DNA of 64,000 bases from an uncultured Dialister sp. (GTDB lineage Bacteria; Bacillota; Negativicutes; Veillonellales; Dialisteraceae). This document shows positions 6,801-31,483 of the stretch, in pieces. Positions within the stretch are counted from its first letter, which is position 1. Each line of letters begins with the position of its first letter. The stretch spans positions 17,863 through 81,862 of the forward strand of contig CAKPUX010000002.1 in assembly GCA_934193095.1 (NCBI GenBank), written 5' to 3'. Both the position numbers and the translations under genes were made by a program. Below the pieces are notes generated by a model. It was not told the DNA's origin, ran no database searches, and worked only from the letters and a program-made list of their open reading frames with translations.

Positions 6801-8698
6801 ATACGGCGATCCAGGCGAAAGATACGAAGTATTCCATCGATATGAATGGCCATGATCTGACCATCAAAAACGAAGGGAATGCAGGTATCACCGTAGATGG
6901 CAAAGCCTTGACTTTCCGCAACGGAAAGACCACGGAGCTTACGGCGGACAAGGTCGGTATCGAAGCGAAGAACGGCGGCAATTTCAGTACCTATAACGGC
7001 GGCGTGTGGAATATCAGCGCCGATACAGCGGCGAAGGCCGATGGGGCAGGCAGTTCTATTTCCTTAGGCGCCGGTAAGGTCCAGAGCACCACGCTGGCAG
7101 AAGCTTCGAACGGCGGTACTATTGAGTTCGTTGTACCGAATGACAAGACAGCGACGGAATATGTGGGGGATGTGAAGGTCAATGACGCGGACAGTAAGGT
7201 AAGATTAGGCATTGCTACCGAAGGCTCTACCTGGACAGGCGGTCTGACCAATCATGGCGGCACCTTTGAAATGGGGCTGCAGAATGGCGGCGTATGGAAC
7301 AACACGGGAAAAGAAGAAGCCAATATTTCCCTGCTGGATGCAACGGACACCGGAAATGGCGTGATCTTCCAGAACAAGGACAGCGGCGGTATTACGGTAG
7401 ACCAGTTCCGTGGTCATGCAACGGTGCTGTATAGTCATAATGCAGCAGATCCGACCGATATTCTGGGCGGTGATGTGACGGTCAAGAAGGCCGCCGGCAA
7501 TAGCTTCCTGACCCTGCGGACTGATCGCAGCGGCATCAATATGGGCGATTATCATGGCGTAGAGAATGTGCTCGATGCGCTGGCCAAGAAACTCACCTAT
7601 ACGGATGCGGTCAATGGTGCGACCAACCTGAATGGCCGGGTAGAAATCGCAGAGGGGCTCACGGCTGCGAGCGCTGCTAAACAGTATGGTACGATCGATT
7701 TCAATAAGACCACGGGACAGGGTAGCTATAAAAAGAACAGCATGACGCCAGGCGAGGCGGATCCGGATATCATCTGGGGCAGCTCGGAAACCATGATGAT
7801 GCGTGGTGCGAAGAATGCCATGAATACGTCTATGTTGTCCTGGAGAAGCAATGTTTCCGATATGACGACTCGTATGGGAGATCTCCACTATGGCGTGGAT
7901 GATGGGATCTGGGCAAGAACCTTCGGTGGAAAGATCAAGTACGATAAAGGAACCTCTTCCTTCAGCAATAGCTTCTGGGGCGCGCAGGTCGGTGCGGATA
8001 AGCTCTTCAAGAATGGCTGGCATTTTGGCGGTGCTTTCGACTACAGCAAGGGAAGTGCCAAGTATGAAATGGGCGGCGAAGGGGATCCCAAACTCTACAC
8101 CTTCTCGCTCTATGGCACGAAGCTTTTCGAGGATGGTCAGTATGTAGATATCGCTGTCAAGGCAGGTCACACGACAAACAGCTATACCGTATACAATGAT
8201 ATGGGACATAAGCTGGATGGGGACTACAGTGCTAATGGCTTCGGCATTTCTGCGGAATACGGAAAACGGTTTGGCGGGGCCGATGGCTTTGTGGAACCAC
8301 AGCTGCAGCTGACGCTTTCCCGCCTTGGAAGTGCAGACTATGATGGCATCAGTGACTATACCGGCGGAAAGAAAATGCACGTCAGCCAGGACGGCATGAC
8401 CAGCTTCATCGGCCGTCTGGGTGTAGCCGCAGGAAAAACAACGGAACGCGGTAATTTCTATCTGAAGGCAGGCTTGCTCCATGAATTCAGCGGAAAAACA
8501 AGCACGACATTCAGCGCAGAAAATGAACCGACCTCTACCGTGGATCAGGACTTTGGTGATACCTGGGCAGAATTGACTCTGGGCGGTACCTATAGACTGT
8601 CTCCTTCGAGCATGCTTTATGGTGATATTACCAAGAGCTTTGGTGGAGATTACAAGGTACAGTGGAAGGCCAATGTGGGTGTCCGCTTCACCTTCTGA
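884..8698 (+). CDS. Giant classical (type Va) autotransporter, 2604 aa
   Basis: RBS aaaggagaaagg lies upstream. Signal peptide MQRKWVKRMVLATLFLGGGALFPAGQQALA/QDE. The C-terminal ~300 aa have autotransporter linker and barrel hallmarks (MMRGAKNAMNTSMLSWRSN..RMGDL, GIWARTFGGK, FWGAQVGADK, terminal VGVRFTF). The passenger is built from six super-repeats. Confidence 0.9.
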   Translation: MQRKWVKRMVLATLFLGGGALFPAGQQALAQDEAATTGRSYAVLMGDEDVTLSGYKTSNVYLWKHEKEAPDQLIGGSVKVSSAGLQNSGDKARITLVTDSDGLDLSNDAQVKQVLGALADKLTYTAYTRGEKNLEGTAEIYEGLTFASASKKLSALDFDETTGKAQLAGEVKTPYSGVLGVDDEYEKRGIKQADGTYRFQEDAVIHPGFNITKDDNYLRDFASVMIGKDTTIDMTGHNLDVIMHGTIYNGGGFTNRAAALYVPGNATLTINNPGQIRLDTDSDYYYYADIGAMKEDSHVVIHNDDDPAHAVVMRVTTPLKGYEMNVTALKTFAGTIDIDGLVDIYTNGGWATNAASGRISIGGGSIVTQAYSSVTARSGGVMNVNVSGSVEKGLTPGNHTVNITAKGATSWDKNSYAALASMGAWVGADTNATVNAALTTADSTLCGTIKEAAGTRDEDTTGVRLFLQNGAQWTNKGSSSMRHLYGGKDAAHAGYIDMSKPANSNVNSDLTIANYTGNTVIYYSQERGRKIQGGNIHIGHAEMTDGKKASITIRTDSKGISQSKLTNESFMRNMLNTLANKLYYAAYAEGENNLKGIVQIAEGLTSQSVSREEEIHFTKGGSGYVEGFNQKQTDFTTALTWDMTKDVDYVNANVLREKDKATFTEDTSITVNDEAAMQAKGGDFVKIDAKQINFNLKAAGIQGKGIEVTGEGTEFDLNNPGDVEIDASTGIVTDGSRADFEFSGDNSNITLHHAKTGILATNKSNILIKNKLGTTTINNENTDDSTFVGVQTQNGGSIIIAGRANIDAGAGTALAALGGRIDVNHGATIQTNGSTALVAGNGSRISIASYNFNKPADISIDAGDGFAIDASDGGFTIGSQSGSLRTTNGTVNIKGHIKLGKGYGTLNLTKENSIWTGTAVDGTDDGSGVLHLAMEPDAVWNHVDKDGDAGSEVKVELEGARYIGSSDDQITVLQNSKKGIHFKEISQVDGTLRLVFAHEADSPTSIKGGNITIDTVSTRYVGGTAKVLAVTDSDGINMSDDTMVGNVLKALAKKITYTHPEEAKLVGKVGIADGLTAKSAMLTEGFIRFDPDTGVGSYTPQMVDTFTRSMTGDEAYDKIYTDQGVRQSQFLYSLGKDTTITADKSMDWKVNSNSNVVQIVGQGHTLHLDAETAGIYIGNEEKDTSKRTQLEFTEMPDLNITAGTNGSGILVKNSSANIDLKDSRMHIASKDGAKGFVGIKVVEDRDVGDTKAGDTSLSVDGTLDIETPEGIALWLDGGKGLSLLSPANVIHAEGGTLLKVTKSQNNSQVSINGKQLVGDLDLLGATGGTYRITLNNGATWTGGIVNDVAKSGAVSLDLWNDQYNITPTVWTYQWEQKDKAQDSYIHTVEGWAPGIAESAIYMKADTNLTIGMLKRGIRILYDHDASNPTQILGGNVTIKEAKKVDPQTTLYVRTDSDGINMADETQVSGVLNALAQKIYYKGTPENLDSYAEIAEGLTSASVLKTGKFTYDETTYQGHFSGAIETPGQDGTLFVTPLYAPKSSGKDENNTAYANAGVQQDGKYFIFRKDSRLQISQSGEMPYTSAIDASNDTGGYAAIKMDLTDHQLDVHIDGGEEGLNEAVAGIKGVGWNVSAQNGTLHIEASNAKGDAIGVQTAGKSETSSIIDLKTLTHIDAKTGFDVTGGTVRVNAGTIHADTLGRVGANGILSIGNTGDASAVWTGDMSQSDGQLDMNLDGEDSIWTGAMDWTGGSNSLMLTNGATWKNTGDSHVGQLVSGITRSVGGVIDMTGDSGNIQLDKFSGNASILYKHDANDLTKVYGGDVTVTSAEAGSRITLITDRDGISDDGLREKETVSSLFQAMANKLYYTNYQTEGNLTGILQISEGLTARAASKVTGAMEFAGENGQGQYKADSASPSIYPKDQQKETFTTVMTGNESTDSEYLDGGVMKVGNPSDIRYEFTKDKTAVELATASDTAIQAKDTKYSIDMNGHDLTIKNEGNAGITVDGKALTFRNGKTTELTADKVGIEAKNGGNFSTYNGGVWNISADTAAKADGAGSSISLGAGKVQSTTLAEASNGGTIEFVVPNDKTATEYVGDVKVNDADSKVRLGIATEGSTWTGGLTNHGGTFEMGLQNGGVWNNTGKEEANISLLDATDTGNGVIFQNKDSGGITVDQFRGHATVLYSHNAADPTDILGGDVTVKKAAGNSFLTLRTDRSGINMGDYHGVENVLDALAKKLTYTDAVNGATNLNGRVEIAEGLTAASAAKQYGTIDFNKTTGQGSYKKNSMTPGEADPDIIWGSSETMMMRGAKNAMNTSMLSWRSNVSDMTTRMGDLHYGVDDGIWARTFGGKIKYDKGTSSFSNSFWGAQVGADKLFKNGWHFGGAFDYSKGSAKYEMGGEGDPKLYTFSLYGTKLFEDGQYVDIAVKAGHTTNSYTVYNDMGHKLDGDYSANGFGISAEYGKRFGGADGFVEPQLQLTLSRLGSADYDGISDYTGGKKMHVSQDGMTSFIGRLGVAAGKTTERGNFYLKAGLLHEFSGKTSTTFSAENEPTSTVDQDFGDTWAELTLGGTYRLSPSSMLYGDITKSFGGDYKVQWKANVGVRFTF

Positions 8699-8730: not shown

Positions 8731-8781
8731 TATAACAAAAAACTCGTGAATCGTAATGAGATTCACGAGTTTTTTGTTATA
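8731..8781. terminator. Bidirectional rho-independent terminator
   Basis: Palindrome TATAACAAAAAACTCGTGAATC ... GATTCACGAGTTTTTTGTTATA, 33 nt after the autotransporter stop. Confidence 0.85.
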
Positions 8782-8919
8782 TTAAGTTGCATTAGTTGTT
8801 GGAATCAAATAACCAGCAACTTACAACAATCAACAATTACTCATCCGCTATCTTATCAGTTGAAAAAGTGAATGAGAAGCTACTGCATTAAAGATTTTCA
8901 AATGTTTTTAATTTTCTCC

Positions 8920-8948
8920 TTGACTGTATGATAATCATACGGAATATC
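8920..8948 (+). promoter_or_regulatory. Promoter (-35 TTGACT) with Fur-box-like operator, copy 2
   Basis: TTGACT at 8920-8925 followed by GTATGATAATCATAC (8926-8940). The core ATGATAATCAT equals the centre of the classical 19-bp Fur box GATAATGATAATCATTATC. Confidence 0.6.
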
Positions 8949-8949
8949 A

Positions 8950-9200
8950 TTTCCTTAATGAAATGGTATGGGGAATGCTGGTGTAAATCCAGAACTGTCC
9001 TGCAACCGTATGGGGAGAAGGTTCATTGCACGTCTTTCACAAAGAAATGAATTCATCGAGGAACTAAGTCGGAGTGCCATGCTTTTTCGTAACTATCACA
9101 TCATGATGGTGTTCAAAGATCTGCGAGGTATGGGTCGGATAGAGTGATATTTCTTTTGTGATGCTCAAAATCCGGTCTATACTTGGCAGCTTTTTTATTT
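8950..9200 (+). promoter_or_regulatory. Cobalamin riboswitch-like leader with intrinsic terminator, copy 2
   Basis: GGGGAATGCTGGTGTAAATCCAGAACTGTCCTGCAACCGTATGGGGA, B12-box-like AGTCGGAGTGCC, and terminator arms 9121-9140 / 9170-9189 followed by a T-run (9191-9196). Relative to copy 1 the internal stem sequence differs while the loop ACGTCT.TCACAAAGA is conserved (covariation). Confidence 0.7.
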
Positions 9201-9233: not shown

Positions 9234-12200
9234 ATGAAAAAGGAAATGAAAAATTGGCTTCGCAGTAGCATTGTTTTGGCTTTGGCGGCGGGTGCCTTGG
9301 TCGGAGGTTCGTCTGTGCAGGCGGCTAATACGTATGATATGACCCAGGGGGAGTTTCTGACCAATGGACTCAATTATACGACTACGAACACGTACCAAGA
9401 TAGGGATACATTGATTTATAAATGGGATGCAAAAAACAAGAAAATCATTGGGGGAAATGTTAGCGTTGGTCAAGATGTCTTGAATTCATCTTATGATGGT
9501 GTCAATGTGAATCTGGTGATTGATGCATCAGATTTGTCGAGTATGAGCAACGATGATGTCAAAGAAGCTATGACGCAGTTGGCCTCTAAAATTAAAAATT
9601 ATGCAGAGACTAACCGATATCGGCTGAATGCCTATGTACAAGTACGAGAAGGATTGACCGCTTCTTCCAAGGTTCTTCGTTCTTATCAGTTGGAATACAA
9701 AACTCCTGGTTGGAATGATCCAGATCAAGAAATCAAACCAGATGCAAATGTCGGAGATCTAGAGGAGGGTGTCTTTGCCACTTCTATTATCAATGGCGCA
9801 GCAGGCAGTGAATATGAATTTGATGAAAATGGGGTTTGGCGATATAAAGGCTTTAGAGGAGCAGTGGATGTTAATTTTACTACTCCCGCTACAGATAATG
9901 TGTATGCGGCTATTCGTACAGATGGGAAAGATACAGGAATTTCAAATCTGACGGAAAATAGTTCGTTCAATTCTACTTTACAGATGAATGCAGATGCGTC
10001 TTCTTTAGCTGATTCCAAAGCTTACTTGGCGTATAGTGGGACAGGAAATCAGGTCAGCGTGATTGCTAATGAATTGAATGCTACGGTCAAAGGGACGGAA
10101 GCAACTGGGATTTATGCAGGGCATGAAAATGGTGATACCACGAGTAAGGTAGTGGTTAATGGTGGCATTAATCTGACATTGGATGGTAAGAAAACTACTG
10201 GTGTTGAAGCAGGAAAGAATGGGGAAGTCTCCTTATTAACTGGTCAGAAGACTTATAATAGAACCAATACTGTTAGTATTGAATCACCCAATGGTCATGC
10301 CGTATATGCACATGACGGAGGTAAGGTTACTTTAGATGCTGTGAAAGTCAAGAAAGCAGATAAATCTGCCATTTACGCAGAAAAAGGTGGCAACATCACA
10401 CTGGGCATTGTAAGTGGGTTAACAGATGAATCGATTAGTACAGATGACGATGCAGATAGTCAGGTCTCTTTATCTGTGGATGGAAATTACACAGGGCAAG
10501 TTAAGGGGAATGTCAATGTAGCCTTTACTAAGGGTTCTACTTATAAGGCAGATAATGATAGCATTGGCACTGTGACTTTGAATGGTTCCACATGGGTGGG
10601 TTCCATGTTGCGTGATAATGGCTCGGTATCGATCAATTCTAATGGTCAGTGGAATATGGGAGAAACTGGTCGAGATATCAAATTATCTGCTTTGACCGGC
10701 GGTAAAACGACGGCCAGTCGTGGCTATGTGAAGATGGGCAGTGATAATCTTCACATCGGTACTTACAGTGGAAATGGCACATTTATTTATGATCATGATG
10801 CTTCTGATCCGACGAAGATTCTTGGTGGGAACATTACTATTGAAGAATCTAAGCCACTAAGTCTTTCTAGCTCTGGTTTAGGGGATAAGGGTGATTCTAC
10901 GGCAGAGGGAACTTCCGCATCTACGATTGCTATTGCTACCGATAGTGCCGGTATCGATACCACGGATAATGCTTTAGTTGAAAAAGTGCTGGATAATTTG
11001 GCAAGTAAATTGGCTTATCTGAACTATACTAAAGGGGAACGCAACTTGAGTGGTACCGTAGAATTGTTGGAAGGACTGACCAGTAGTTCTGTGACCAAGC
11101 ATTTTGCCAATCTGACTTTTGATGAAAAGACTGGTCAGGCCAAACGGGATTCGGAAGTCTATCATCCCTATGTCACCTATATCACAGGGGACGCTTCTAT
11201 CGATACGGCCTATGCAGATGCTTACAATGCAGATACCAATACCTATGATTTCAATCAGGATGTATTTATTCGAGAAGCAAAGTCTACAGATTCCGTTTGG
11301 ACTCGTGGCAGCTTGTACTATGGGCTGATTACCAATTATGGGACAGAATACGAGAAGCCAAGTAAAGGTTGGGGTATGTTTAAGAGTTCTAAACCAGATG
11401 GTGGCCCTTCCTATACAATGGATCTTCACGGAAATAATTTGACTGTTGATTTGGAAGCCTTCCCTGAAGCAAATGCCACAGGAAGCCAGCCTATGTGGAC
11501 TACAGCCGCTATCATGGCAGCTCGTGAAGGGACCATTACAATCACCAATCCTGGGGAAATTCATCTGACTTGCAATGCCAATTACTATTATGGTAGTGCC
11601 ATTCGCGCTTCGACCAGTGCTGGTACGACGAATGGTGCCCATGTAATCATTGAAAATGATCAGGGAAATTTGAAGGACCATATCGTATACCTTCGTGGTG
11701 GCATTGATACACCAGGGTATCAGCTTGATTATCGTACTATTGAGACTTACGGGAATGCTAAAGCTAAGGATATAACACAAGAAAACTCGGTATACATCAA
11801 AGGCCTCGTAGACATTGAAGCAGATAAGCATGCGGCTGTTTTTGCACGAGGCGGTTGGATTCGTCTGGGTGGTGGTCGTATTTCTGTGGATAATTACGAT
11901 GCGCTTTGGACGGCAGGTAAGGGTCGCATTGATATCAATATGCTGGTCGATGATGATGGCACTGTGAAAGGTGCTGGCAGTAATGATTTTGTACTGAAGG
12001 GTAATGCAGTGACCGCTACTCCTTACTATGGGAATAAGGGGACATTGAATTTGGCCTTTACCACAGCAAACTCCAGGTTTGATGGGGAAACTGGAGGTAC
12101 CGGTGAACAGAATCTCTATGTACAAAATGGAGCGGTTTGGAACAATACACCAGAATCGTATAACATCTGGAATTCCGGTGAAGTTGTAAAATCAGATCTA

Positions 12201-13652
12201 GCAAGTATTGCTACCCATTTATACGGGGGACAAGATGCAGCGCATACAGGTTACCTGATTCAGGACAGTGCGAAAGATTTAACAATTAAGAATTATAGTG
12301 GCTTTATGAAAGCCTATATAGCACGGGATAAATCCAAATCTGCAGGTGAAGATGGAACTGATGCAACTAGCCAGTTTAGTCAAAAAGGAAATATTATTAT
12401 CGAAAAAGCGGATCAGACAGATGGACAGAATGCAGATTTCACTTTATTGACAAGTCAGGAAGGCATTGACACTTCCAATAAAGAAGAAGTACTTTCAGTA
12501 ATGAAGGACTTGGCTGGCAAGCTGATCTATAAGGAGGCCACTGACAGTGAAAATCCGGCAGTTCATCTTAATGGACATGTAGGCTTGGCAGAAGGGCTGA
12601 TTGCTGGTTCAGTAGAAACGAGATTGGCTGATTTGACGTTTGATGGGACGTCCGATGGAACGGGTAGTGTCGTGGATAGTACCTATCAGATTCCGAAGAA
12701 TTATCCGGCTATCCTGTATGGACCTAAAGAAACTGCTATGATGCGTGGTGCTAAATCTGCCATGGCTTCTACAGCTATGATTTGGCGGGCTATCAATAAT
12801 GACGTGGAACGCCGGCTGGGCGATTTACGTGTAGGCAATGCTGAAAAGGAAAATGGTATGTGGGCTAAAGTGGGCGCTGGGCGTATGTCTTACGACGAAG
12901 GAACCACAGATTTCCGTACCCGCTTTAATGAATATCATATCGGTTATGATCATGCCGTAGGCAATGCAGGATGGAGAGCTGGTGCTTCTGTCAGCTACAT
13001 CGACGGGAAGAGTACCTATGAAAAGGGGACTGGTGATAATGATGTAACCAATTTCCATGTATATGCTACAAAGACCATGCAAAATGGGGCTTACTTGGAT
13101 ATCATTGGCAGAGTTAGCCATGCCAAGAATAAGTATCGTATTATGAACGATGCAGGGAATAAACTGGACGGCGATTATGGAACCAATGGATATGGTCTAT
13201 CTGCAGAATATGGGAAACGGTTTGTCAAAGATAGTGGATTCTATGTAGAACCACAAGCAGAACTGACTTGGGGTAGATTATCTGGCAAATCTTATGATGC
13301 TGCTAGTGATTATGGCGGAGGCCGTGCATTGCATGTCGATCAGGATGATTTTAATAGTTTGATTGGACGTATCGGTGTTGGATTTGGTTTAGTGAAAGAA
13401 CGAAGCAGCATCTATGCAAAACTTTCGCTTCTCCATGAATTCCAAGGTGGTTTTGATACACAGTATACGGCAAAAGGTGAACCTTCTAATGCGACACATA
13501 TGGACTTTGATGGTACTTGGGTATCTGCTATGTTTGGCGGTACATACCAGCTGGGAGACAGAGCCAATTTCTATGGGTATCTGGAAAAGACTTATGGTGG
13601 CGATTTAAAGACCGATTGGCGCTATAATGTAGGACTTCGTTTTACCTTTTAA
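9234..13652 (+). CDS. Classical autotransporter, 1472 aa
   Basis: RBS gagaggag. Signal peptide MKKEMKNWLRSSIVLALAAGALVGGSSVQA/AN. C-terminal translocator (MMRGAKSAMASTAMIWRAINNDVERRLGDL, GMWAKVGAG, terminal VGLRFTF). Three copies of the conserved module occur in the passenger. The central region is homologous to the N-terminal part of the 2604-aa protein. Confidence 0.9.
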   Translation: MKKEMKNWLRSSIVLALAAGALVGGSSVQAANTYDMTQGEFLTNGLNYTTTNTYQDRDTLIYKWDAKNKKIIGGNVSVGQDVLNSSYDGVNVNLVIDASDLSSMSNDDVKEAMTQLASKIKNYAETNRYRLNAYVQVREGLTASSKVLRSYQLEYKTPGWNDPDQEIKPDANVGDLEEGVFATSIINGAAGSEYEFDENGVWRYKGFRGAVDVNFTTPATDNVYAAIRTDGKDTGISNLTENSSFNSTLQMNADASSLADSKAYLAYSGTGNQVSVIANELNATVKGTEATGIYAGHENGDTTSKVVVNGGINLTLDGKKTTGVEAGKNGEVSLLTGQKTYNRTNTVSIESPNGHAVYAHDGGKVTLDAVKVKKADKSAIYAEKGGNITLGIVSGLTDESISTDDDADSQVSLSVDGNYTGQVKGNVNVAFTKGSTYKADNDSIGTVTLNGSTWVGSMLRDNGSVSINSNGQWNMGETGRDIKLSALTGGKTTASRGYVKMGSDNLHIGTYSGNGTFIYDHDASDPTKILGGNITIEESKPLSLSSSGLGDKGDSTAEGTSASTIAIATDSAGIDTTDNALVEKVLDNLASKLAYLNYTKGERNLSGTVELLEGLTSSSVTKHFANLTFDEKTGQAKRDSEVYHPYVTYITGDASIDTAYADAYNADTNTYDFNQDVFIREAKSTDSVWTRGSLYYGLITNYGTEYEKPSKGWGMFKSSKPDGGPSYTMDLHGNNLTVDLEAFPEANATGSQPMWTTAAIMAAREGTITITNPGEIHLTCNANYYYGSAIRASTSAGTTNGAHVIIENDQGNLKDHIVYLRGGIDTPGYQLDYRTIETYGNAKAKDITQENSVYIKGLVDIEADKHAAVFARGGWIRLGGGRISVDNYDALWTAGKGRIDINMLVDDDGTVKGAGSNDFVLKGNAVTATPYYGNKGTLNLAFTTANSRFDGETGGTGEQNLYVQNGAVWNNTPESYNIWNSGEVVKSDLASIATHLYGGQDAAHTGYLIQDSAKDLTIKNYSGFMKAYIARDKSKSAGEDGTDATSQFSQKGNIIIEKADQTDGQNADFTLLTSQEGIDTSNKEEVLSVMKDLAGKLIYKEATDSENPAVHLNGHVGLAEGLIAGSVETRLADLTFDGTSDGTGSVVDSTYQIPKNYPAILYGPKETAMMRGAKSAMASTAMIWRAINNDVERRLGDLRVGNAEKENGMWAKVGAGRMSYDEGTTDFRTRFNEYHIGYDHAVGNAGWRAGASVSYIDGKSTYEKGTGDNDVTNFHVYATKTMQNGAYLDIIGRVSHAKNKYRIMNDAGNKLDGDYGTNGYGLSAEYGKRFVKDSGFYVEPQAELTWGRLSGKSYDAASDYGGGRALHVDQDDFNSLIGRIGVGFGLVKERSSIYAKLSLLHEFQGGFDTQYTAKGEPSNATHMDFDGTWVSAMFGGTYQLGDRANFYGYLEKTYGGDLKTDWRYNVGLRFTF

Positions 13653-13671
13653 TAGGAGCTAGAAGCCAAGA

Positions 13672-13707
13672 CTAGGGAAACACTGGTAATGATTAAATCA
13701 ATGTTTC
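13672..13707. repeat. Solo hairpin of the AGGGAAACACTGATTAAATC repeat family
   Basis: agggaaacactgg..caatgtttctct, 20 nt after the autotransporter stop. Same terminal sequence as the 163-bp elements at 28873 and 45854. Confidence 0.6.
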
Positions 13708-13741
13708 TCTGGTATGTGTGACTGCTATTTTAGGAGAATAA

Positions 13742-13781
13742 AGAGCTGTGAATTTGAAAGGAAATTCATGGCTCTTTTTTC
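13742..13781 (+). terminator. Rho-independent terminator
   Basis: agagctgtgaattt / aaattcatggctct stem followed by TTTTT. Confidence 0.75.
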
Positions 13782-13894
13782 TTTATGAGGAAGGGGAGAG
13801 TCCTTCACATAGAAGCAGGTGTGATTAGGCAAAATCCTGCACACAATTATTGCCTGTTCGTTGTTGGAGCCTTGATAACCATAAATAGGGGACT

Positions 13895-13925
13895 TGACTA
13901 TATGATGGTCATACGGTTGATACTA
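13895..13925 (+). promoter_or_regulatory. Promoter (-35 TTGACT) with Fur-box-like operator, copy 3 (no riboswitch downstream)
   Basis: TTGACT at 13895-13900 followed by aTATGAtggTCATAc (13901-13915), then ttgatact as a possible -10. The leader to the receptor gene is only about 90-100 nt. Confidence 0.55.
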
Positions 13926-14019
13926 AATAAGAATATAAAGTATAAAAGGATAGGTGTCATATTTTATTTCATGCCCCATATTCATCGAGCAAGAGGGCAA
14001 AATGGAAGGACTGGAGAAA

Positions 14020-16656
14020 ATGAAGAAATGGAATTCATCTTGGCGTAGGGAGTCCAAGAAATCTTACCTAACAATTGGCTTACTGCTAGGAATGATCTCT
14101 ATGGGACAAATGTCTGTGTCCGCTAACGAACCAGAACAGGCGGAAGGACCCATATATACATTGCAAGGGATTACTGTAGAGGCTAAAAGGCCAGATTGGG
14201 AAGCAAAGCTTTCTCCGGGGACTGTCACCGTGATTCGCCCTCAGGATTTCAAAGGGGAGCAGAAGACGCTGCCGGATATGCTGAAAACGGTGCCTGGTGT
14301 CCATGTGCGTGAAGTGAATGGGCATGGACAGTATACGACGGTCACGGTGCGAGGCTCTACCGCGGCACAGGTCGGTGTCTTCATGGATGGGATACTGACA
14401 AACCTCGGGGGAGATGCTGCCGTCGATATTTCCACCCTTCCGGTCAAGAATGTGGAGCGTATTGAAGTGTATCGCGGCTATGTGCCGGCACGTTTCGGCG
14501 GGACTTTTATCGGCGGTGTCATCAATATCGTGACAAAGAAACCGGATAAACCCGGCATTTCTGCAGAAGTTGGAAAGAGCTCTTATGGCGGGAAGAGTAT
14601 GTCCCTTGAGTACACGGCTCCACTGGCAAGTGGTACGTTGATGGTGGCAGGAAATTATGAGTCAAGTGATAACGATTTTTCCTATACCAACTATGCGGCG
14701 GAAAGATATATCCCCTATTTGGAAAAGCAGATTAAGGGTTACCAGGGTGTAGTTGATAATTTCAATAAGGATAAAATAGACTTTTTTACAGAACCTACCA
14801 AAAATGATTGGGGGGAGGAAGGAACTCCGCTGGTTTCACTTACGCAGGATGAAATCGATCATTTCAAGAATAATCCGAATGACTGGCTGGAGTTTGTTCG
14901 CGGAAGCGGAGAGTATAGCCTTGCAGGAAAATTGACAGAGAATGCAGGAGAGACAGGCCTTGATGCAAAGGATATAGCGGATTATAAGACACAGGCAGAT
15001 CCGGAAACGAGCCCTGAACTAGCTGAATATAACAAAACAACCAAAGCGTATATCGACAAATTGAAGGAAGCCAAGGAGGCTAAACGCTGGCGCAAGTATA
15101 ACGATTATAAAAACAGCAGTGCGTTGGTCAAGTGGCAGAATGAGAACTGGGTGGTGAAAGGTTCCTGGAATCGGATTGACCGCCATTTGCCGGATGGACT
15201 TTGGGGTGGGAACGCGAATCAGGCAATCGAGAACAATGCTGTGGATTTGCGTGACCTCTATCGATATGATAGCCGCCATCAGAAATTGGATAATACGGAG
15301 GTGATGGTGCAGAACCGGAATCAGAATGGCCGTTTGGAATGGGGATGGACGGCGGACTACCTGCATCAGAAAAAGAGTTACCGGGCGGAGCATATTGTAC
15401 AGGATGCAGTGACTGATTTTGATGAGCTCAATACACCTCTTCGTAAATGGAGCCGTTATACATCCAATAAGTATAATCTGCAGCTGGACGGGACGTACAA
15501 GATTTCCGAGCGAAACATGCTGGATTTCCAAACGAATATGTCTCATGAACGGTTAAAAATCAATGGGTCTTTGATGGATAAGGTGCTGGGGGATTCTGAT
15601 CTTGGGAATGTTTTAGGACAGACCAGGAATCGATATGATCAGGATATATGGAATGTGCAATTGCAGGATACGATTACGCTGGACAAGAAGTCCAGCTGGT
15701 TTCTGACACCAAGTCTTCGTTACAACCGTTCAAAAGTCACTGGCTACAGTGACGGGAAGCGATTCGCGGAAAATCAGGAAAACCGATTCCACTGGATTCA
15801 TCCGAAGGACAGTCAGGTGGATGATAAGGTAACCTGGCAGTTGGGCTTAAAGAAAATAGTCAATGACCAGCTGACGCTTCGCATGACAGGCGGGACGTAC
15901 TATCGTCTTCTTAATATGTATGAGATTGCAGGGGATGGCGCAGGGATTCTTCCGGCACCGAGAAAGGATGCGCAGACTTCTACCTTCCCACTGCCGGAAG
16001 AAGGAAAGCAGTTCGACATAAGCGCCATCTGGAAAGGGAAGCTGCTGCATGCGGATAATAGTACGCAGCTGACATATTTCTGGAGAGACTCGACCAATAT
16101 GCTGCAGCTGGTACGCACCGGGAAAGATTACTGGTCATATTTCAATGATAATCGCGGCAAGGTACATGGCGTGGAATTCCAGTCCAATTTCAGCTGGAAG
16201 AAGGTAGATCTGGATTTGCGGGCCACTTATATGCAGACACATATGCAAAGGAAAAATAGTGCCGTAGGCTATGGTTATTCGGATATCTGGGCTACCTATC
16301 AGCCGGAGTGGGAAGGGAATGCAAGATTGACTTATCGCCCAAACCAGCATGTGGATCTATTTGGCGAAGTCCATTATACCGGTGGTTATTATACGGATTG
16401 CAGTAAAGACCCCAAGGGTGGTGAGTATGCGCATTTGTCAGGGCGGCCGGTTAATGCACTGACGACCATCAATGGCGGTGTGAAATGGAAACCGGCTGAC
16501 AGCTGGCAGTTTACTTTTGGCTGTAATGACATATTCAATAAGGGACCGAAGATGAAGATCCGAAGTAATACAGCTTTTACGGTGCCGGGATACATTAATC
16601 CGGAATTTCCTATCCAGGGGCGGACGTATTATGCATCGATCCGTTATCAATTCTAA
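14020..16656 (+). CDS. TonB-dependent outer-membrane receptor (about 880 aa)
   Basis: Signal peptide ..LLLGMISMGQMSVSA/NE and a TonB-box-like YTLQGITVEA. Plug motifs VTVRGSTAAQVGVFMDGI and IERIEVYRGYVPARFGG..GGVINIVTKKP. Terminal GRTYYASIRYQF. The start is ambiguous (ATG 14002 or 14020); the track start at 13954 is unlikely. Confidence 0.88.
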   Translation: MKKWNSSWRRESKKSYLTIGLLLGMISMGQMSVSANEPEQAEGPIYTLQGITVEAKRPDWEAKLSPGTVTVIRPQDFKGEQKTLPDMLKTVPGVHVREVNGHGQYTTVTVRGSTAAQVGVFMDGILTNLGGDAAVDISTLPVKNVERIEVYRGYVPARFGGTFIGGVINIVTKKPDKPGISAEVGKSSYGGKSMSLEYTAPLASGTLMVAGNYESSDNDFSYTNYAAERYIPYLEKQIKGYQGVVDNFNKDKIDFFTEPTKNDWGEEGTPLVSLTQDEIDHFKNNPNDWLEFVRGSGEYSLAGKLTENAGETGLDAKDIADYKTQADPETSPELAEYNKTTKAYIDKLKEAKEAKRWRKYNDYKNSSALVKWQNENWVVKGSWNRIDRHLPDGLWGGNANQAIENNAVDLRDLYRYDSRHQKLDNTEVMVQNRNQNGRLEWGWTADYLHQKKSYRAEHIVQDAVTDFDELNTPLRKWSRYTSNKYNLQLDGTYKISERNMLDFQTNMSHERLKINGSLMDKVLGDSDLGNVLGQTRNRYDQDIWNVQLQDTITLDKKSSWFLTPSLRYNRSKVTGYSDGKRFAENQENRFHWIHPKDSQVDDKVTWQLGLKKIVNDQLTLRMTGGTYYRLLNMYEIAGDGAGILPAPRKDAQTSTFPLPEEGKQFDISAIWKGKLLHADNSTQLTYFWRDSTNMLQLVRTGKDYWSYFNDNRGKVHGVEFQSNFSWKKVDLDLRATYMQTHMQRKNSAVGYGYSDIWATYQPEWEGNARLTYRPNQHVDLFGEVHYTGGYYTDCSKDPKGGEYAHLSGRPVNALTTINGGVKWKPADSWQFTFGCNDIFNKGPKMKIRSNTAFTVPGYINPEFPIQGRTYYASIRYQF

Positions 16657-16666
16657 GGAGGAATAG

Positions 16667-19600
16667 ATGATGTGGAAAATGAGTAACAAAAAACGCAAGA
16701 TGGCTTTCCTGACTGCTCTGATAGGGAGCCTCATGGCGGGATCCAGTGTAGGGGCGGCCAACCTGATGGCAACGATCCCATCGGATTATCACAATAGCCA
16801 GATGGGGGGCGTGACAGGTTCCCGCGTGACTACAACGGTTGATGCGGCTCCAGTGGTAGGAGCGGTGAAGAATTTGAACGGGGATCCGGCTACGTTCTCT
16901 GTGTTTATCAACGGAGAAAGCCAGATTTTTCTTCGTCAGTATACCTATAGTACCGTCGCATTAAAGGGCAGTGTATTGATGGATGCAGATGGAGATTGGG
17001 CATCTGTCAATAATCCAACGGGAGAAATTACGGCGGTACCAAATGCACATGCAGCAGTTGGCTATTGGAATACCCTTTATACGACAGGTTATGATAATGG
17101 GCAAATTGGCCTTGCGAAGGTTAATGGTAAGCAGCTGGTCGAGAATAAACTGAAGACGGTCAATCTAAAAACAGATATCAAAGAAAAAACGGGGGATGTA
17201 GATGCTGCCTCCTATGATACCTACAAGGATACAAATGGAAAGGTGCAATTCACCAGCGTCCATGGTGAAGGTCTTCTCATAAAGGATGGATATTTGTATG
17301 TGGCGGCCAGCGTTAATAAGAAAGGTGGCACTGACGATTATGATAATGGCTACCTTTTGCAATATAAGATTAAAAATGATGGGGGTCTGGAGTATCGAGA
17401 TTATGCCCGTATCGGAAAGAATACGAACAATGTTCGGCTGAATTCATACAATAATCTGATTCTTGCAACAGCTGTTGGCGGGTATCAGCATTATGGAAAG
17501 TTGAATCCGGAATCGGCTCTCAATTATGTGGATGTGTCGGATAATCATATCGGGCAGATACATGAGACGCGATCGGTTCATCTGCCTGAACAGGTCAAAA
17601 ATGACGGATATGATTTCCGTGATATGAAGGTACTGCCGGATGGTACTGTTTATGTGATGAAGTATACTTTGAGTGCTACAGGAGGGGAATTTACCGGCCG
17701 TGTGTACCAGACGACCATGGCCAATCTGATGTCGAAAAATCCCGATGATTGGCAAGTGGTTTTGGATGGGAAAGTAGATGATGGTTGTTTTGGTCGGCTG
17801 AATGCGGAGTATTATACCAAACGGTTATGGGTAGAATGGGGTAACAATCTCTATGTGTACGAAGATGGAGATACGAAACCTACGCACCAATGGGTGACGA
17901 AGGACTTTTCTACTGACACGCAGTTCTATCAGTTCAATTCAGTCACCATGTTGCCGACCGACCAGGTCTGGGGAAATCTTGCCAAGTTAACGACGTATCG
18001 TCCTGAAGGTTTGACTGCGTCTTCGGAAACAAAAATCACCGTGGAGAATGCAGATGCCAAGGTAGGAACTGTGACTAGAAAAGCGGGCATTACGGGGACA
18101 TCGGCGGACCAGACAGCTTTTAGTGATGTCACTTCAGATGATGGAACGTATTCCTTTACCAAGGATGAAGTGCTGAGCATCAATCTGGGGAAAGAAGGGG
18201 ATCATGCCACCAATGCAGCAGCGGTCATTCAGGCGAAAGATGGGAAGGACATCACGATCGATGCTTCTGGACACAGCCTGCAGCTGGCTTCTAAAAACTA
18301 TATAGCATCTCCTGTCGGCATTTATGCCGGAAATGGTAAGAATGTATCGATCACAGCAGACAAAGTGGATGTCGTGACTTCTGGATATTCCAGCGGGAAT
18401 TCTTTGACCAATGCGATCTGGAATGATGGCGGGAAAAATACAGCCAGCCAAATCACTGTGAATGGGGATGTCAATATTTCCATGTCTGGTGGTTACGGCG
18501 GTAATGGTGTCGCTATCCAGAAGTCGTTCCGCTGGGGAGAAAACAGTCAGGAATCGACGGCATCTTCTGCTATTACGATTCATGGCAATCTGAAAATTGC
18601 CGGGGAGGACAGTGCAACGTGGGGCATTCCTGTTAATCGGGAGAATGTTTTGTCTCGTTTTAATAATGCAGGTATCCTGACGAATATTGAAAAAAGCAAA
18701 GTCACTGTCACTGGTGATGTAGATATGGCGGTGTATGGCAATGGGATCACCACCAATGCAAGAGATAGCGAGGTATCCATTGGCGGCGGACATATTACTG
18801 TGCCGCAGGGAACGAAATACGGCTATTATACACTGGGTGCCTATGCAGGTACGATCAATGTCAATATGAATGAGGCAGGCTCCGCAGCCGGTACACATGA
18901 TGTACAGCTGGATGGAGATGTATTTGCTTTAAAATCGACGGGCACCATCAACTTGGGGCTGACAACGAAGAATTCCTACTTGAATGGTATCATTGACAAT
19001 GGCGGCAAGGTCAATATGTGGCTGCAGAATGGAGCCGTCTGGACCAATGAAGCGAAAAATACCCGCTATAAACAGGACGATGAGGATGTAGGAAGCAATG
19101 AGGTCAGCCGTGTGACATTCCTGCATGGGGGTACGAAGTCCGGTACCAGTGATACAGCGGGTGTCATCATTCAAACAGAAAACAGCAAGTCGCTGACGAT
19201 CGATAAATTCTCTGGAGCGGCCAAGGTACTGTACTCACATGATAGCAATACCCCCACGAAGATATTGGGCGGGGATGTGACCATCGGCAGCGCTATTCGT
19301 GGGTCAGAAATCGTTCTCCGGACGGATTATGATGACAACATGCAGTCTGATGCAGTAAAGAATCAGGTTTTGAATGCATTGGCGAAAAAGCTGTACTATA
19401 AAGATGCCGTCAATGAAAAAACTGCCCTTTCAGGGAAAGTGGAAATCGCGGAAGGCCTGACGGCTTCCTCTGCGGCTAAATATATCGGAAATATTGCATT
19501 TAATCAGACGAATGGGCAGGGCAGCCTTGGCAGTGGAGAAACGCCGGAACCTCCGGCTGAACAGTCGAAGACACTCTTCACGTCTTCGATGACTGGCGGA

Positions 19601-22600
19601 GATGACAAAGAGTACAAAGATGATCATGTATGGCAGGATCAGGTGTACACCTTTACCAAGGATAAAACGACTGTCCAGGTAGAGGGAGGCGCAGCTGTCG
19701 ATGCAGCGAAAGACGTGACCATCACAGCCGACGGGAATGAACTGGATCTGACCGGCGGCGAAGCTGGGATCCGTGCAGCGGCTGGAAAGACGGTAGACAT
19801 CACGGCAGGTATACTGAAAGTCAATGGCAAGACGGGGATCGATGCGGCTGGCACCGTGACACTCAAAGGCAAGAGTGAAATCACTGGGACTGAAAAGGCT
19901 GTCAACGTACAGAAGGGCGGAAGCGTAACGCTTGGCACATCGACCATCTCTGGAGATGTAGAAAACAGCGGCCATCTGACACTTGATGCAGCGACGACCG
20001 TGAGCGGCAGCATCGCCAATGCGGGCGTCCTTGCGGTAAACGGTGAGACCCATGCCAAAGATCTGACCACAACGGGAACGATGACTGTAGGAACTGATGG
20101 TGTGCTTGCGGCAGACAATATCAATGTCAATGGAGGTACCTTCACAGCCAATGGCAGTGTGAGCAGCACAGTCAAAGCTGACAAAGGCGGCAAGGCCATC
20201 CTGAAAGGAAAGAAGACCGCACTGAAAGGTCTGGTGAGTGGTGATCATTCCAGCATCGAAGCGACCCTTTCCGGAAAAGACTCCGCATTAAACGGCAGTC
20301 TTGATGGAGCAGGGAGTGTGACTCTGTCATTAGCAGATCAAGCAAACTGGACAGGGAATGCCGTTGGAAACGGAGATTACGCCGTTACCATCGGGAAAGA
20401 CAGCACCTGGACGGGAAGCAGTGCAGGAAACAATACCAGCCTCACCCTTGGAGGCACTTGGAACAACCGTGGAACAAGCAGCCTGAAGCAGATGGCAGGA
20501 AACGGCGGCGTCATCGATATGACAGATGCAAAGGCTGGCACTGTCACCATCCAGAACTATGGCGGCAGCAGCACCTATATCTACAAACACGACACAACAA
20601 AACCGGCAGACGCCAACAGTGGTTACGCTATCCTTGGCGGAGATGTGAAGATTTCCCAGGCAGACAAAGGCAGTGAGATCACCCTTCTTACCGATCGCGC
20701 TGGTTTGGATTTCACTTCGACCAAAGCAGACGAGAAGAATCTCATCAGCGGTACGTTGAATGCGCTCGCAGGAAAACTCTACTATACCGGCTACGCAGAT
20801 GGAAATCTTAGCGGAACGGTCAAGATCGCAGAAGGCCTGACAGCATCTTCTGCCAGCTTGAGATCTGAAACCATTACTTTCTCCACCGCTGATACAGGTA
20901 CCAAGAAGGCAGGACAGGGCTTCTACGATTATACTCCTGCGACGGATGATAAACCTTATGAAACCGGTCCTATTGTAAAATCTGAAAACATTGATGAAAC
21001 ACGTGTTGGCGATGTCAACGGCATTGTTTCTATTAATGTTACCGAAGCTCAGGATAGTGTAGCTGCTAGCGCGCCCAGCGCTATGTATGTAGCAGGCGAC
21101 GCAGTAAGCCCGCTTGTTGTTGACTTACAAGGGCACACCTTAAAGCTTAACACCAGCGGTGATGCAAAGATATATTTGTCTACAGTTTACGTTGATGCAG
21201 ACAAGAGCATGGAAATTAAGGATTCCAAAGGCAATGGCATCCTGAAGGTTTCCGCCGGTCTTGGTGCTGATGGCAATGCTGATACTAAAGCTAACTATGT
21301 TTATGGCATTCGTGTAGGTGAAAACGGCAGCTTTACCGCAAATACTGATGTTGAGATAGATGGAGTTAAATCTAATTCTAAACAGCGTGCTTATGGTGTA
21401 TATGTAAGTACCAAAGGCAATGTTGTATTCGAAAAGGATTTGACCATCAAGAATGTTCAGACCGGCAACAAGGTTGGACCGAATACAGCAGGTATTTATG
21501 CAGACAGTTCTTCAAGTGCAGATGCTCCTATCAATATAACTGTTAAAGGCAATCTTAATATTGAAAACGTATTGGGAAGTGCAATCCGTGCACTGAATTC
21601 TTCCACTATATCTACTGCTGGCGCAACAATTAAAGCTGCGGATATGTCTAACGGTACGGATTATAGCCAATATTATGCTTTGCAGGCCAACAAGGGTACC
21701 ATTAACCTGAATACCGGTGAAGGCATTACTGCCGGAATTCTGGATGTTACCGGTGATATGAAGGTAACAGATTACGCTGCTTCTGTTATCAATGTCAATA
21801 TGACGAAGGGTTCCAAATGGACAGGCGCAGTAAGCAATATTCCCGGCAGTACTTATAATGCACCTGCTGGTCAGTTTAATCTGACAATGGCAGAAGGATC
21901 CGTATGGAATCATGAAACCGGGCGTTCAGTAGATACGCTGAAGACAACGTTTGCCGGCAGCAATGTTTCTAAGCTGGACGGCTCCGGTGTAATCTATCAG
22001 AATTCCGACAAGGGTATTACCGTATATAATTACAGCGGTGACACAACGGTTGTTTATGGTCATGATGCAAATGATCCGCTGACCATCCATGGTGGTGATT
22101 TTACGATCAAGGCTGCCGCTGCCGATTCCAAGATCACTTTGGTCACCGATAGCCAGGGGATTACCGGTGGCTTTGAAGCTAGTGATACGGCAGCAGAAAA
22201 GAATCATGTCAAGGAAGTACTGAACAAGCTGGCTAATAAGCTGTTCTATACAGGCTACAAGGATGCAAATCTGTCTGGCGTTGTCAAGATTGCAGACGGT
22301 CTGACGGCATCTAGTGTAAGCGCTACTGTCAAAGCTTCCGGCGATGTGACCTTCTCTGACGGAACTAATGGGACGAAAAAGGCAGGGCAGGGATTCTATG
22401 CCTATACGCCGGAACAGGAAAAGCCCAATTATAAAACGGGTGCTATTACCAAGTCTGAAGATATCAGCCTGAGTCGTGAGCTGGATGAAAGCGGCGTAGC
22501 ACATGTTACTGTAACCGAATCGAATGTTACTAGTAATTTTGCCAGTGCTATTTACGCAGGCGAATCAACTGATCCGTCCAGCCCGATGACTGTAAAAATG

Positions 22601-25600
22601 TCCGGCAAGGGACTGGCTTTGAATGCTGCTCAATCGAGTGGACAGGCAGCAGCGATTTACGCAGGCGCTAATACCTATATCAAGGTTGTTAACCCGTCTG
22701 CTGACCAAAAGCTTTCAATTAGAGCAACCAATACGGATACCAGAGCCTCTCATGGCATTTACGCTCTAGGCAATGCGCACCTCAATATTTCCGGTCCGGT
22801 AGAAATTACTGAGGTTATCACTAAGGGTGATGCTGCAAATGGCATCAATATCCAGGGCCAGCAGAGCGAGATTACTATTGATGGTCCGCTGACAATCAGC
22901 AATGTCAAAGGTCTTAGAGAACGCGGCGCAGGCGTGAGTGCTTCCGGTATTCTGGTCACCGGTGACAGCTCCACTGTAACTGTCAGCGGTCCGGTCGACA
23001 TTTCCGGTGTACGCGGCAGCGGTATTAAGCTGGTGGGCGCTAATACCAAGGTATCTGTTGGCGGCGGCACTATTACTGCAGCCGAAGACAGCGATCATTC
23101 GCATAATTTCTATGCAGTCCGCGTAGATAAAGGCACGCTGGACATCAACATGAAGGACGGCGCTGCAGGCGATACGACCACCAAGATTACCGGGGATATG
23201 TATGCCACCGGCCAATATGGCAAGAAGGTCGTGGAATATACCGGCGGTGAGCTGATCGACTGGAATGACGCAGGCATTCTTAATGTGGCTTTGACCGATA
23301 AGGATTCCTTCTGGAAGGGCGTAGCAGCTTATGACCAGTATACTGATGACTATGGCACCGGCGGCAACACCACGCATGATATCGGGCAGTTCAACCTGTA
23401 TCTGCAAAACGGTGCCACCTGGACCAATGAGCAGCAGTCGCACGTGACAACAACGACCATAGCGTCCAAAAATCCTGTATGGGAAGGCAGCACGCTGGCT
23501 ACACTCAATGGCGGTAAGGATACGAATAGCGCAGGCTTGATTTACCAGAAGGATACCAATCCTATTTCTGTTGTCAATTACAGCGGTCATACCACGGTAT
23601 TCTATGATCATGATGCGAGTGACCCGACCAAGATCATCGGTGGCAACTTTAATATCACGAATGCAGCAGAAGGTTCTGCTATCACCTTTATTACCGATAA
23701 TAAGGGTATCACCTCCGGCTTTGCAGATGGCGATTCCAGTGTTGCCAAGGATAAAGTAGCAAACGTACTGAATAGCCTTGCAGGCAAGCTGTTCTACAAG
23801 AACTATACGGATGGTCATCTGACTGGCGTAGTGAAGATCGCTGATGGTCTGACCGCTTCTTCCGCGGCACTGAAGACTGGCGATATTTCCTTCTCTACGG
23901 ATCAGACGGGGACCGGTGTAGCTGGACAGGGCTATTATGCCTATACGACCAGCAAGCCTGGAAGCCAGACAGACAAAGAGTTCACAGCGGCCATCACTGG
24001 CGATGCATCGGTCGATACGGTATATGTGGATAAAGGCGTACTGAAGGACGATGGCACGTATGTATTCACGGCGGATAGCACGACTATCACACCTGAAAAG
24101 CATCTGGTTGCCGGTGGTGCGTGGGTTCCGCAGATTGGCGCAGCGATTTCCGGCTCCGATGAAAATCATAATGTGACCATGGATATGAATGGTAACAAGC
24201 TGACGGTAGATACAACAACCGATACCCATACAACCGGTATCGCGGCGATCGACAAGGGTGTGGTGAACATCAATCATGCCGGTGCCATGTCTATCAGTGC
24301 GGAAAGCACCAAGGGAGGTCAGACCGGTGCACTCTTTGTCAATGCCGGTGGTGCGATTCATATTCACAATGCAGGGGATAACAATGTACTGACTTTGCGT
24401 GCGAAGAGCACATCGCCGGCAAATGCTGCCGTGATCAAGAGCATGAACGGGGTAAACGGCGTGATGTCTTCTATCACCGTGGACGGTCTTGTCGATATTT
24501 TAGCTGAGAAGAGCGGGGGCTCCGGTGCGAATGAAGCCATCAGTGCAGTTGCCTCCAAGGTTGAGGTTGGCGGCGGCGTCATCAAGGCGATCAACGGAGC
24601 TGAATATGCGATTCGTGCTTATGGTGAATTCGCTTCCAAGAACCGCGGACAGGTGAATGTGAATGTCAAGAAGGATGCCAAAGGTGCTATCATCGGTGCA
24701 GGCAGCAATCATGTTCAGCTGGAAGGCAATATCTATCTCGGTGGCGGCATGGATAATGCCGGTGCCAGTGCAGATGTCAGTCTCGGTCTGAATACGAAGG
24801 ACTCTTTCTGGAAGGGTGATGTAAGCAATACCAATGGCAGCAGTGCAGGCATCGTCAATCTCTATATGGGAAGCGGTGCCACCTGGACTGGCAATAACCT
24901 TTCTGGCAATACGGTGAATGCAAGTCTGGATCATGCCACCTGGACCGGCTCTAGCAGCGGCAATGCGATGCACCTGAAGCTGGATAATTCTATCTGGAAT
25001 ATAAATGGCGCCAGCAAGCTGGCTTCCTTCTCCGGTGATAAAGGCAGCATCTCTGTGGCAAGTGATGCAGGCAACATCAGCGTAGGTGATTACAGCGGCA
25101 ATACCACTGTGATTTACAACCACGATGCTGATCATCCGACGAATATTCTCGGCGGCAGCTTTACTATCGGTCAGGCGAAGGACGGCTCCCATATCACGCT
25201 CATCACGGATAACCAGGGCATCACGAAAGGCTTTAACGCCTATGATAAGGCTGAAGACCAAAATACGGTCAATGAAGTTTTGAACAAGCTGGCACAGAAG
25301 CTCTTCTACACCGCGAATGATGGAAAACTGGCAGGCACTGTCAAGATCGCTTCTGGTTTAACTGCTTCTTCTGTGGCTTTGAAGACTGGCGATATTTCCT
25401 TCTCTACCGATGCAACCGGCACAAAGACACCTGGTCAGGGCTTCTATGAATATACCGAAGCAGACGATTCTGTCATTACCGATCCGATTACCGGTAACCT
25501 TGATAAGAAATATGTCAATCTGGGCATTGAAACAGAAAAAGGCATTTACAATTTCACAAAGGATGCGATTATTGATGTTACGAAGGGCGATTACAGCTTC

Positions 25601-28864: not shown

Positions 28865-28872
28865 TGGGAACT

Positions 28873-29035: not shown

Positions 29036-29053
29036 GGATTGACCGCGTGAGAA

Positions 29054-29112: not shown

Positions 29113-29167
29113 TGAAAGAGGTTCAGCTGGTTCTATAGGTCAATGGGTGTTGTGCGGTGTGAAAAGT

Positions 29168-31480: not shown

Positions 31481-31483
31481 GGA

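Follow-up and report, generated by a model that had tools for sequence, protein, structure and literature searches.

A conserved pairing of a TonB-dependent receptor with a predicted β-propeller, borne by a giant autotransporter in Dialister, as a candidate corrinoid acquisition unit

Why should the gene for a gated importer of the outer membrane lie directly in front of the gene for a giant autotransporter? The question is raised by a 64-kb stretch of DNA from an uncultured Dialister sp. (assembly GCA_934193095.1, contig CAKPUX010000002.1, positions 17,863-81,862, forward strand; hereafter the window), in which a TonB-dependent receptor gene adjoins the gene of AT-4065, a type Va autotransporter of 4065 amino acids. 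Known type Va passengers are adhesins, proteases or toxins, and we know of no type Va autotransporter that is a conserved partner of a TonB-dependent receptor or that stands behind a vitamin riboswitch, nor did the literature that we searched contain one. On the evidence set out below, we consider it fairly probable that the two genes constitute a corrinoid (vitamin B12 family) acquisition unit, in which the N-terminal domain of the autotransporter, here called HEAD, does the capturing and the BtuB-like receptor does the importing.

The gene pair and its conserved element

Coordinates are those of the window, and the features of this locus lie on its plus strand. The receptor gene ends with the stop codon TAA at 16654-16656 and the AT-4065 gene begins with an ATG at 16667 (a second ATG follows at 16670), leaving a gap of 10 nt that holds only the ribosome-binding site of AT-4065, GGAGG (16657-16661), directly 3' of the receptor stop codon. 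This adjacency, and the 10-nt gap, had been reported in a first-pass annotation of the DNA and are confirmed here. Because 10 nt leaves no room for a promoter or a terminator, its description of the junction as free of both also stands, and we infer that the two genes are co-transcribed. Its placement of the receptor start at position 13895 has to be corrected, as that frame is full of stops; the position belongs to the -35-like TTGACT (13894-13899) of a promoter motif described below.

The receptor gene (14002-16656) likely starts at ATG 14002, which is favoured because of homology with the ortholog at the related locus L001, and would then encode 884 amino acids. The alternative ATG at 14020 would give 878, and the open reading frame opens with a GTG at 13954. 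The protein contains a Plug domain (PF07715, E 5.3e-19, with 69 bits well above the 23.9 cut-off, at approximately 14212-14520), a candidate TonB box (...LQGITVEAKR, which resembles a TonB box; the family consensus is LEGITVEAKR) and a C-terminus ending in ...RYQF. Relatives at 58-73% identity match PF00593, the barrel model of Pfam, whereas the window receptor has no match to it. In an AlphaFold model with a pLDDT of 68.6 overall and of about 80 in the barrel blocks, the receptor is predicted to form a TonB-dependent-transporter barrel that encloses the plug, and Foldseek matched this model to many solved TonB-dependent transporters (E ~1e-26), a comparison that confirms the transporter fold and does not discriminate the substrate. 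Between early barrel strands lies a helical insertion of about 130 residues (225-352; ~14692-15075) with seven predicted helices (pLDDT 76-88), which may be an extracellular docking platform. The length of this insertion varies across the family, which yielded at least 2945 matches in a homology search. The window receptor is 98%, 94% and 86% identical to receptors on contigs of Dialister assemblies; the contig with the 98%-identical receptor, labelled Fusicatenibacter in its record, is probably mis-binned.

AT-4065 is encoded by a single uninterrupted open reading frame of 4065 codons (16667-28864). The protein begins with MMWKMSNKKRKMAFLTALIGSLMAGSSVGA followed by ANL, that is, with an N-terminal Sec signal peptide (amino acids 1-29; 16667-16753) ending in ...SSVGA, and the mature N-terminus, AANL, is conserved in the alignment. 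HEAD comes next (amino acids 30-448; 16754-18010), followed by a passenger stalk (18026-27874) of seven divergent modules of 407-516 amino acids, which are 27-40% identical to one another and each end in the motif GLT(A/S)SS, and by a linker with the C-terminal β-barrel, the translocator (27875-28864). The whole 4065-amino-acid protein gave no match in Pfam; scanned separately, its last 399 amino acids, which end in ...IRLRF, matched PF03797 (E 7.8e-39) and TIGR01414 (E 1.8e-33). With its translocator barrel, Sec signal peptide and single-chain passenger, AT-4065 is a type Va autotransporter, and it shares its signal peptide, long repetitive passenger and C-terminal PF03797 barrel with classical members of the class such as the pertactin-like adhesins and the haem-binding SPATE Hbp/Tsh.

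HEAD itself has no meaningful sequence match in Pfam, NCBIfam or the PDB. Its AlphaFold model is confident (pLDDT 87.8, pTM 0.88) and all-β, and Foldseek matched it to seven-bladed propellers. BtuG of Bacteroides is among the best single-domain matches (8bmx_D, E 1e-7; 8bai_A, target-normalised TM-score 0.69), the BtuG entries 8bmx_D, 8bai_A, 8bn0 and 8bmz_B having target-normalised TM-scores of 0.62-0.69. The matched BtuG structures include complexes with BtuB and with cyanocobalamin.

On sequence comparison, what is conserved next to the receptor is HEAD and not the autotransporter as a whole. A receptor alignment scanned against one genome per species gave 80 loci, all plausibly from Negativicutes, which were searched with hidden Markov models for the receptor, HEAD and the barrel; 76 receptor genes had downstream DNA. 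A HEAD gene lies directly 3' of 64 of these 76, as a complete autotransporter (23 loci), as a long open reading frame cut off at the end of the locus (27 loci) or as a stand-alone protein of 414-479 amino acids (14 loci). As there are only 376 clusters in the HEAD family (at E <= 0.001 among 1.84 billion representative proteins), this pairing is more than chance. It is present across Dialister, Phascolarctobacterium, Selenomonas, Schwartzia, Sporomusa and others. In relatives whose receptors are 90%, 67% and 61% identical, a giant autotransporter again follows the receptor, whereas the flanking genes differ; the gap between receptor and partner measures 10 nt in both the window and L001 and is wider in L002 (16 nt) and L005 (23 nt). 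In the autotransporters of these relatives, HEAD (the N-terminal ~420 amino acids) is 49-85% identical; it keeps 49-52% identity in autotransporters with differing stalks, which identifies it as the conserved element. Invariant HEAD residues are Y12, R61, Y63, Y65, N97, H99, Y113, D114, H170, E172, N188, N223, Q245, W333, R357 and W359. Among the autotransporter forms as a whole, the distance from the receptor stop codon to the HEAD domain is nearly constant (~94-105 nt). The proposed pairing of receptor and autotransporter thus holds in that the receptor has a conserved partner, but the partner has to be narrowed to the N-terminal propeller.

The partner also occurs in other guises. One class of stand-alone HEAD proteins has a normal, non-lipoprotein signal peptide and ends in ...GLKTINGQRILSF; a second receptor of Anaerosinus gibii is followed by a stand-alone HEAD homolog of 422 amino acids (30% identity, E 1e-36).

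Several side observations concern the partner gene. Behind an identical receptor (P0008), the HEAD autotransporter has 2662 amino acids in L002 and L004 (12828-20816) and 3174 in L003 (12828-22352), which suggests a variation of stalk length at the level of strains by approximately one module. Next to receptors that have no HEAD gene (L033, L045, L047, L057 and L084) there is often a gene for a signal-peptide protein of 170-200 amino acids, which may be an alternative receptor partner, and in L053 the receptor is followed by an open reading frame of 1502 amino acids without HEAD.

The link to vitamin B12

Cobalamin riboswitches connect the receptor-HEAD pair to B12. Riboswitches that score above the Rfam gathering threshold lie directly 5' of the receptor gene in L002, L005, L035 (in tandem), L050, L059 and L074, and for 55 of 74 receptors a profile built from them has a match in the 1 kb upstream. 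The riboswitch class of Phascolarctobacterium is weaker, with a sole Rfam match in its region at 25.1 bits, below gathering. In L085, the riboswitch precedes the HEAD gene itself. The association extends to distant HEAD homologs of about 420 amino acids that bear Synerg-CTERM sorting signals (L087, 7001-8287; L089, 7001-8260; P0214, P0299 and P0271), whose loci were gathered by a further homology search and by contig look-ups; a metagenome scan with the single protein P0214 gave no match. In L087, a cobalamin riboswitch is followed by a BtuB-like receptor and the HEAD gene, and in L089 one operon comprises an AdoCbl riboswitch, a BtuF-like protein, an ABC ATPase, a FecCD permease, ExbB, ExbD, TonB, the receptor and HEAD. 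The receptors paired with Synerg-CTERM HEADs, of 597-672 amino acids, have no helical insertion. Judging by the sorting signal, the carriers of these HEADs are probably Synergistota. The association of receptor, HEAD and riboswitch spans three HEAD anchorings and, probably, two phyla.

The receptor points in the same direction through its plug, whose best sequence matches are E. coli BtuB in the PDB (E 1.5e-20) and the TonB-B12 model TIGR01779 in NCBIfam; haem and siderophore models match it too. A proposal of B12 acquisition also fits the physiology of the bacteria concerned, since Dialister and Phascolarctobacterium, the main succinate consumers of the gut, live on the conversion of succinate to propionate, which needs B12 (PMC11441152).

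In the window, riboswitches are found before two further type Va autotransporter genes, which lie upstream of the receptor and whose products have no HEAD domain. The first, AT-2604 (2604 amino acids; 884-8698; PF03797 E 5e-45), has the same type of repeat module as AT-4065. It is preceded by a cobalamin riboswitch-like aptamer of the AdoCbl-II type (521-652; 31.2 bits, below the gathering threshold of 36.5, E 2e-5; nhmmer E 2e-15), which is a paralog of the second riboswitch, shares its conserved core and is 77% identical to 8919-9081, and after which comes a hairpin with a U-run at ~701-787, an expression platform of the terminator type. A hairpin resembling an intrinsic terminator follows AT-2604 at ~8734-8778. 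The second, AT-1472 (1472 amino acids; 9234-13652; PF03797 E 4.9e-36), is under an AdoCbl-II riboswitch (8955-9087) with an Rfam score of 41.3 bits, above the same threshold, behind which lies an expression platform of the terminator type (~9120-9200; hairpin with dG -53.8 kcal/mol, z -4.3, then a U-run). AT-1472 is separated from the receptor unit by another intrinsic-terminator-like hairpin with a 16-pair stem and a T-run (13740-13777).

What the receptor shares with these two units is a promoter/operator motif of 23 nt, TTGACT-N-TATGA-N3-TCATACGG (TTGACT-N-TATGA-N3-TCATACaG), which was recognised by eye and by a pattern search. The 64 kb contain exactly three copies, where none is expected from shuffles, with one copy at the head of every transcription unit of the locus: that from the first riboswitch to AT-2604 (477-499), that of AT-1472 (8920-8942) and that of the receptor and AT-4065 (13894-13916). 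The motif recurs at the same places in Dialister relatives. In the third copy, a -10-like GATACT stands 19 nt after TTGACT, and the leader to the start codon is about 70-90 nt. As a motif copy heads the receptor/AT-4065 unit and a terminator-like hairpin follows AT-1472, the unit appears to have its own promoter. That it carries the same motif as two riboswitch-controlled headless units suggests that all three form one co-regulated locus. Ahead of the receptor genes of L001, L011 and L028, the intergenic sequence did not align with the window past the 3' end of the preceding gene.

Two further observations were made on these elements. The dyad within the motif, GTATGA-N3-TCATAC, sits in the 19-nt spacer between the -35-like and -10-like boxes, a geometry reminiscent of MerR-type operators; a Fur box was considered for it and rejected, as only a single copy out of the three is similar to the Fur core and what is conserved are the half-sites GTATGA and TCATAC at a spacing of 3 nt. 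Riboswitch-controlled headless autotransporters occur in L074 as well, and a riboswitch-like match precedes another autotransporter in L002.

We propose that the unit would be expressed when B12 is low, in relatives by relief of the riboswitch and in the window through the shared promoter/operator. The C-terminal barrel of AT-4065 would insert in the outer membrane, and the seven-module stalk would display the HEAD propeller at its distal tip. Exposed there, HEAD would bind corrinoids on the cell surface or farther out and hand them to the BtuB-like receptor, with import driven by TonB energy. Such a unit would be the functional counterpart of BtuB-BtuG of Bacteroides, with type V secretion taking the place of the surface lipoprotein. 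A BtuG-like role is likely for HEAD because of its predicted propeller fold together with its gene context, although we do not assign it to the BtuG family. A broader proposal, in which our confidence is evenly balanced, is that HEAD represents an unrecognised, phylum-spanning family of surface corrinoid-capture propellers, analogues or very remote homologues of BtuG outside Bacteroidota, which are placed on the tips of giant type Va autotransporters in Negativicutes and work with a dedicated BtuB-like receptor.

The Bacteroides system (PMC6143338, PMC10404256) resembles the present one in having a TonB-dependent receptor gene that adjoins a gene for a seven-bladed propeller (here a predicted one), in the cobalamin-riboswitch control of the locus (here in relatives of the window) and in belonging to B12-dependent gut anaerobes. 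In contrast to HEAD, which has no detectable sequence similarity to it and is the N-terminal tip of a 4065-amino-acid autotransporter, BtuG is a lipoprotein of about 330 amino acids with a lipobox and export signal that serves as a lid on BtuB, and it has been reported to be exclusive to Bacteroidetes. The window receptor likewise differs from BtuB in its size of about 880 amino acids, in the helical insertion and in a barrel that BtuB models do not match. BtuH and BtuJ/DUF4465 of Bacteroides (PMC8941943, PMC13398666, PMC13616437) are also accessory extracellular B12 binders encoded in btuB loci, but HEAD is of another fold and family and matches neither DUF4465 nor any other Pfam family. The general arrangement, a gated importer beside the gene of an extracellular ligand-capture protein, is that of the haem and iron systems HasR-HasA (a haemophore), HxuC-HxuA (two-partner-secreted), TbpA-TbpB and XusA-XusB of Bacteroides. 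Those systems have other substrates and unrelated binder folds, and their binders are exported by the type I, type Vb, Slam or lipoprotein route; none of them uses a type Va autotransporter passenger as the binder.

The first-pass annotation had not recognised the combination of a TonB-dependent receptor with a type Va autotransporter as a characterised one, and our full-text searches agree: they returned no report of such a pair, although their coverage falls short of all journals and a prior description is possible. They also gave no link of a cobalamin riboswitch or of BtuG with an autotransporter, and the full-text literature on B12, Negativicutes and TonB does not describe the receptor-HEAD autotransporter arrangement. 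A Pelobacter genome paper that contains the words riboswitch, cobalamin and autotransporter makes no link between them. A review from 2026 that deals with cobamide relay components outside Bacteroidota names BtuH and BtuJ and mentions neither Negativicutes nor autotransporters.

B12 is a keystone micronutrient of the gut, and lipoproteins of Bacteroides are the only case to date in which its capture at the cell surface has been worked out. If the proposal is correct, diderm Firmicutes, together with the organisms that carry Synerg-CTERM HEADs (probably Synergistota), capture B12 by means of an unannotated propeller family with three anchorings, one of them type V. It would provide the first autotransporter passenger that serves as a vitamin-harvesting device feeding a TonB-dependent importer, hence a new functional class of autotransporters, and would assign a function to hundreds of giant genes annotated as 'hypothetical' or 'autotransporter'. 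It would also offer a handle on how Dialister and Phascolarctobacterium obtain B12 for the conversion of succinate to propionate, and the system could be one determinant of the competition for B12 for these main succinate consumers.

Competing explanations

A number of observations weigh against the corrinoid acquisition unit proposed above. The leader of the window receptor has no cobalamin riboswitch (13600-14150, even at E <= 5) and, at about 70-90 nt, is too short for one; its closest relatives, L001, L011 and L028, also have no riboswitch before the receptor, so the B12 link of the window copy comes from homologs at 57-67% identity and from the context of the locus. Against the BtuB equivalog models, the receptor scores 107 bits where TIGR01779 requires 599.7 and 82 where NF007926 requires 836, with the plug alone aligning. 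No BtuG is among the PDB sequence matches of HEAD, even at E <= 10, and identity in the structural alignments is 11-12%. Other neighbours follow the receptor in 12 of the 76 cases. A class of stand-alone HEAD proteins without a signal peptide (L005, 7691-8959; L035, 12721-14055; L064, L068 and L069; P0156 and P0158), which start with MSENLFAYT... at the mature HEAD N-terminus and end in a conserved basic helix, ...RLAREARELAEKxKK, is hard to fit to capture at the surface. Finally, the geometry is awkward: from the distal end of a long stalk, the capture domain would have to hand its ligand over directly to a receptor that sits in the membrane.

Some of the evidence on HEAD would suit an account in which B12 acquisition is indeed the purpose of the unit while free corrinoid is not a ligand of HEAD. 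HEAD might then dock on B12 carrier proteins of the host or of microbes (intrinsic factor, haptocorrin or the binders of other bacteria), act enzymatically on corrinoids or on the proteins that carry them, or do no more than cover or regulate the receptor. We regard this account as unlikely, if worth serious consideration. The association with riboswitch and receptor indicates the pathway and not the ligand of HEAD. Nor does the fold by itself point to B12, because generic propellers score like BtuG: lactonase-like seven-bladed propellers (4qrj, 3fgb), which include enzymes, match the HEAD model about as well, and one member of the HEAD family has a marginal Pfam Lactonase match (E 0.13). However, no catalytic family is recognised in the sequence, and the closest precedent, BtuG, with the same fold in the same neighbourhood, binds B12 directly (PMC6143338).

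It is less probable still that AT-4065 serves in adhesion or aggregation and has no more than an operon in common with the nutrient importer, with which it would cooperate neither physically nor functionally. Giant repetitive autotransporters are usually adhesins, and here three such genes stand in a row; moreover, the different stalk lengths found in strains with an identical receptor (2662 amino acids in L002, 3174 in L003) are typical of surface-variable adhesins. Yet the adjacency of receptor and HEAD persists where HEAD is a stand-alone protein or is anchored by Synerg-CTERM, and control by a vitamin riboswitch is not expected of an adhesin.

That the genes form a pair for the uptake of iron, haem or siderophores, in which the autotransporter would play the part of a haemophore or haemoglobin-binding protein, seems to us very improbable. 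The receptor plug does match the TonB-hemin (E 7e-25), MxcH and FepA models, the window copy has no riboswitch of its own, and the promoter dyad could be the operator of a metal regulator. On the other side, cobalamin riboswitches precede the homologous pairs in most loci, the best matches are to BtuB, and the dyad GTATGA-N3-TCATAC, as read from the sequence, is not a Fur-type 7-1-7 box.

Least credible of all is that the receptor is needed to export the HEAD protein or to assemble it on the surface, as Oar of Myxococcus is for the secretion of PopC: receptor-dependent protein secretion has a precedent (PMC6434023), and the signal-less HEAD class starts at the mature N-terminus, but HEAD in the window is part of a classical autotransporter that needs no such help because it has its own signal peptide and barrel, and riboswitch control and an operon context of BtuFCD, ExbBD and TonB point to import.

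Neighbouring DNA and a second pair in Dialister

The unit of receptor and AT-4065 probably ends at a long hairpin with 28-nt arms and a T-run (29053-29113). The genes 3' of AT-4065 in the window are housekeeping genes, namely rpmE, prfA, prmC, sua5 and glyA. The intergenic DNA after AT-4065 (28870-32000) is dense in repeats: it contains a tandem duplication of about 240 nt (29182-29662) and several copies of GGTTCA-rich and hairpin-forming elements at 30740-30930, 31013-31104, 31546-31713 and 31847-31949. A short element directly after AT-4065 (28871-28903) resembles one after the AT-1472 gene (13672-13700).

Dialister genomes carry a second, paralogous unit (L059, L058, L060 and L078), which consists of a riboswitch, a receptor of 1020-1075 amino acids and a HEAD autotransporter of 1283 amino acids. 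The organism of the window therefore probably has one riboswitch-controlled pair in addition to the riboswitch-free pair described here.

Farther downstream, between sbcCD-like genes and genes of fatty-acid synthesis, lies an apparent accessory island (44030-54107) that encodes a Fic-domain protein (on the minus strand), a HipA_C kinase-like protein, a serine recombinase and a SAP-domain protein.

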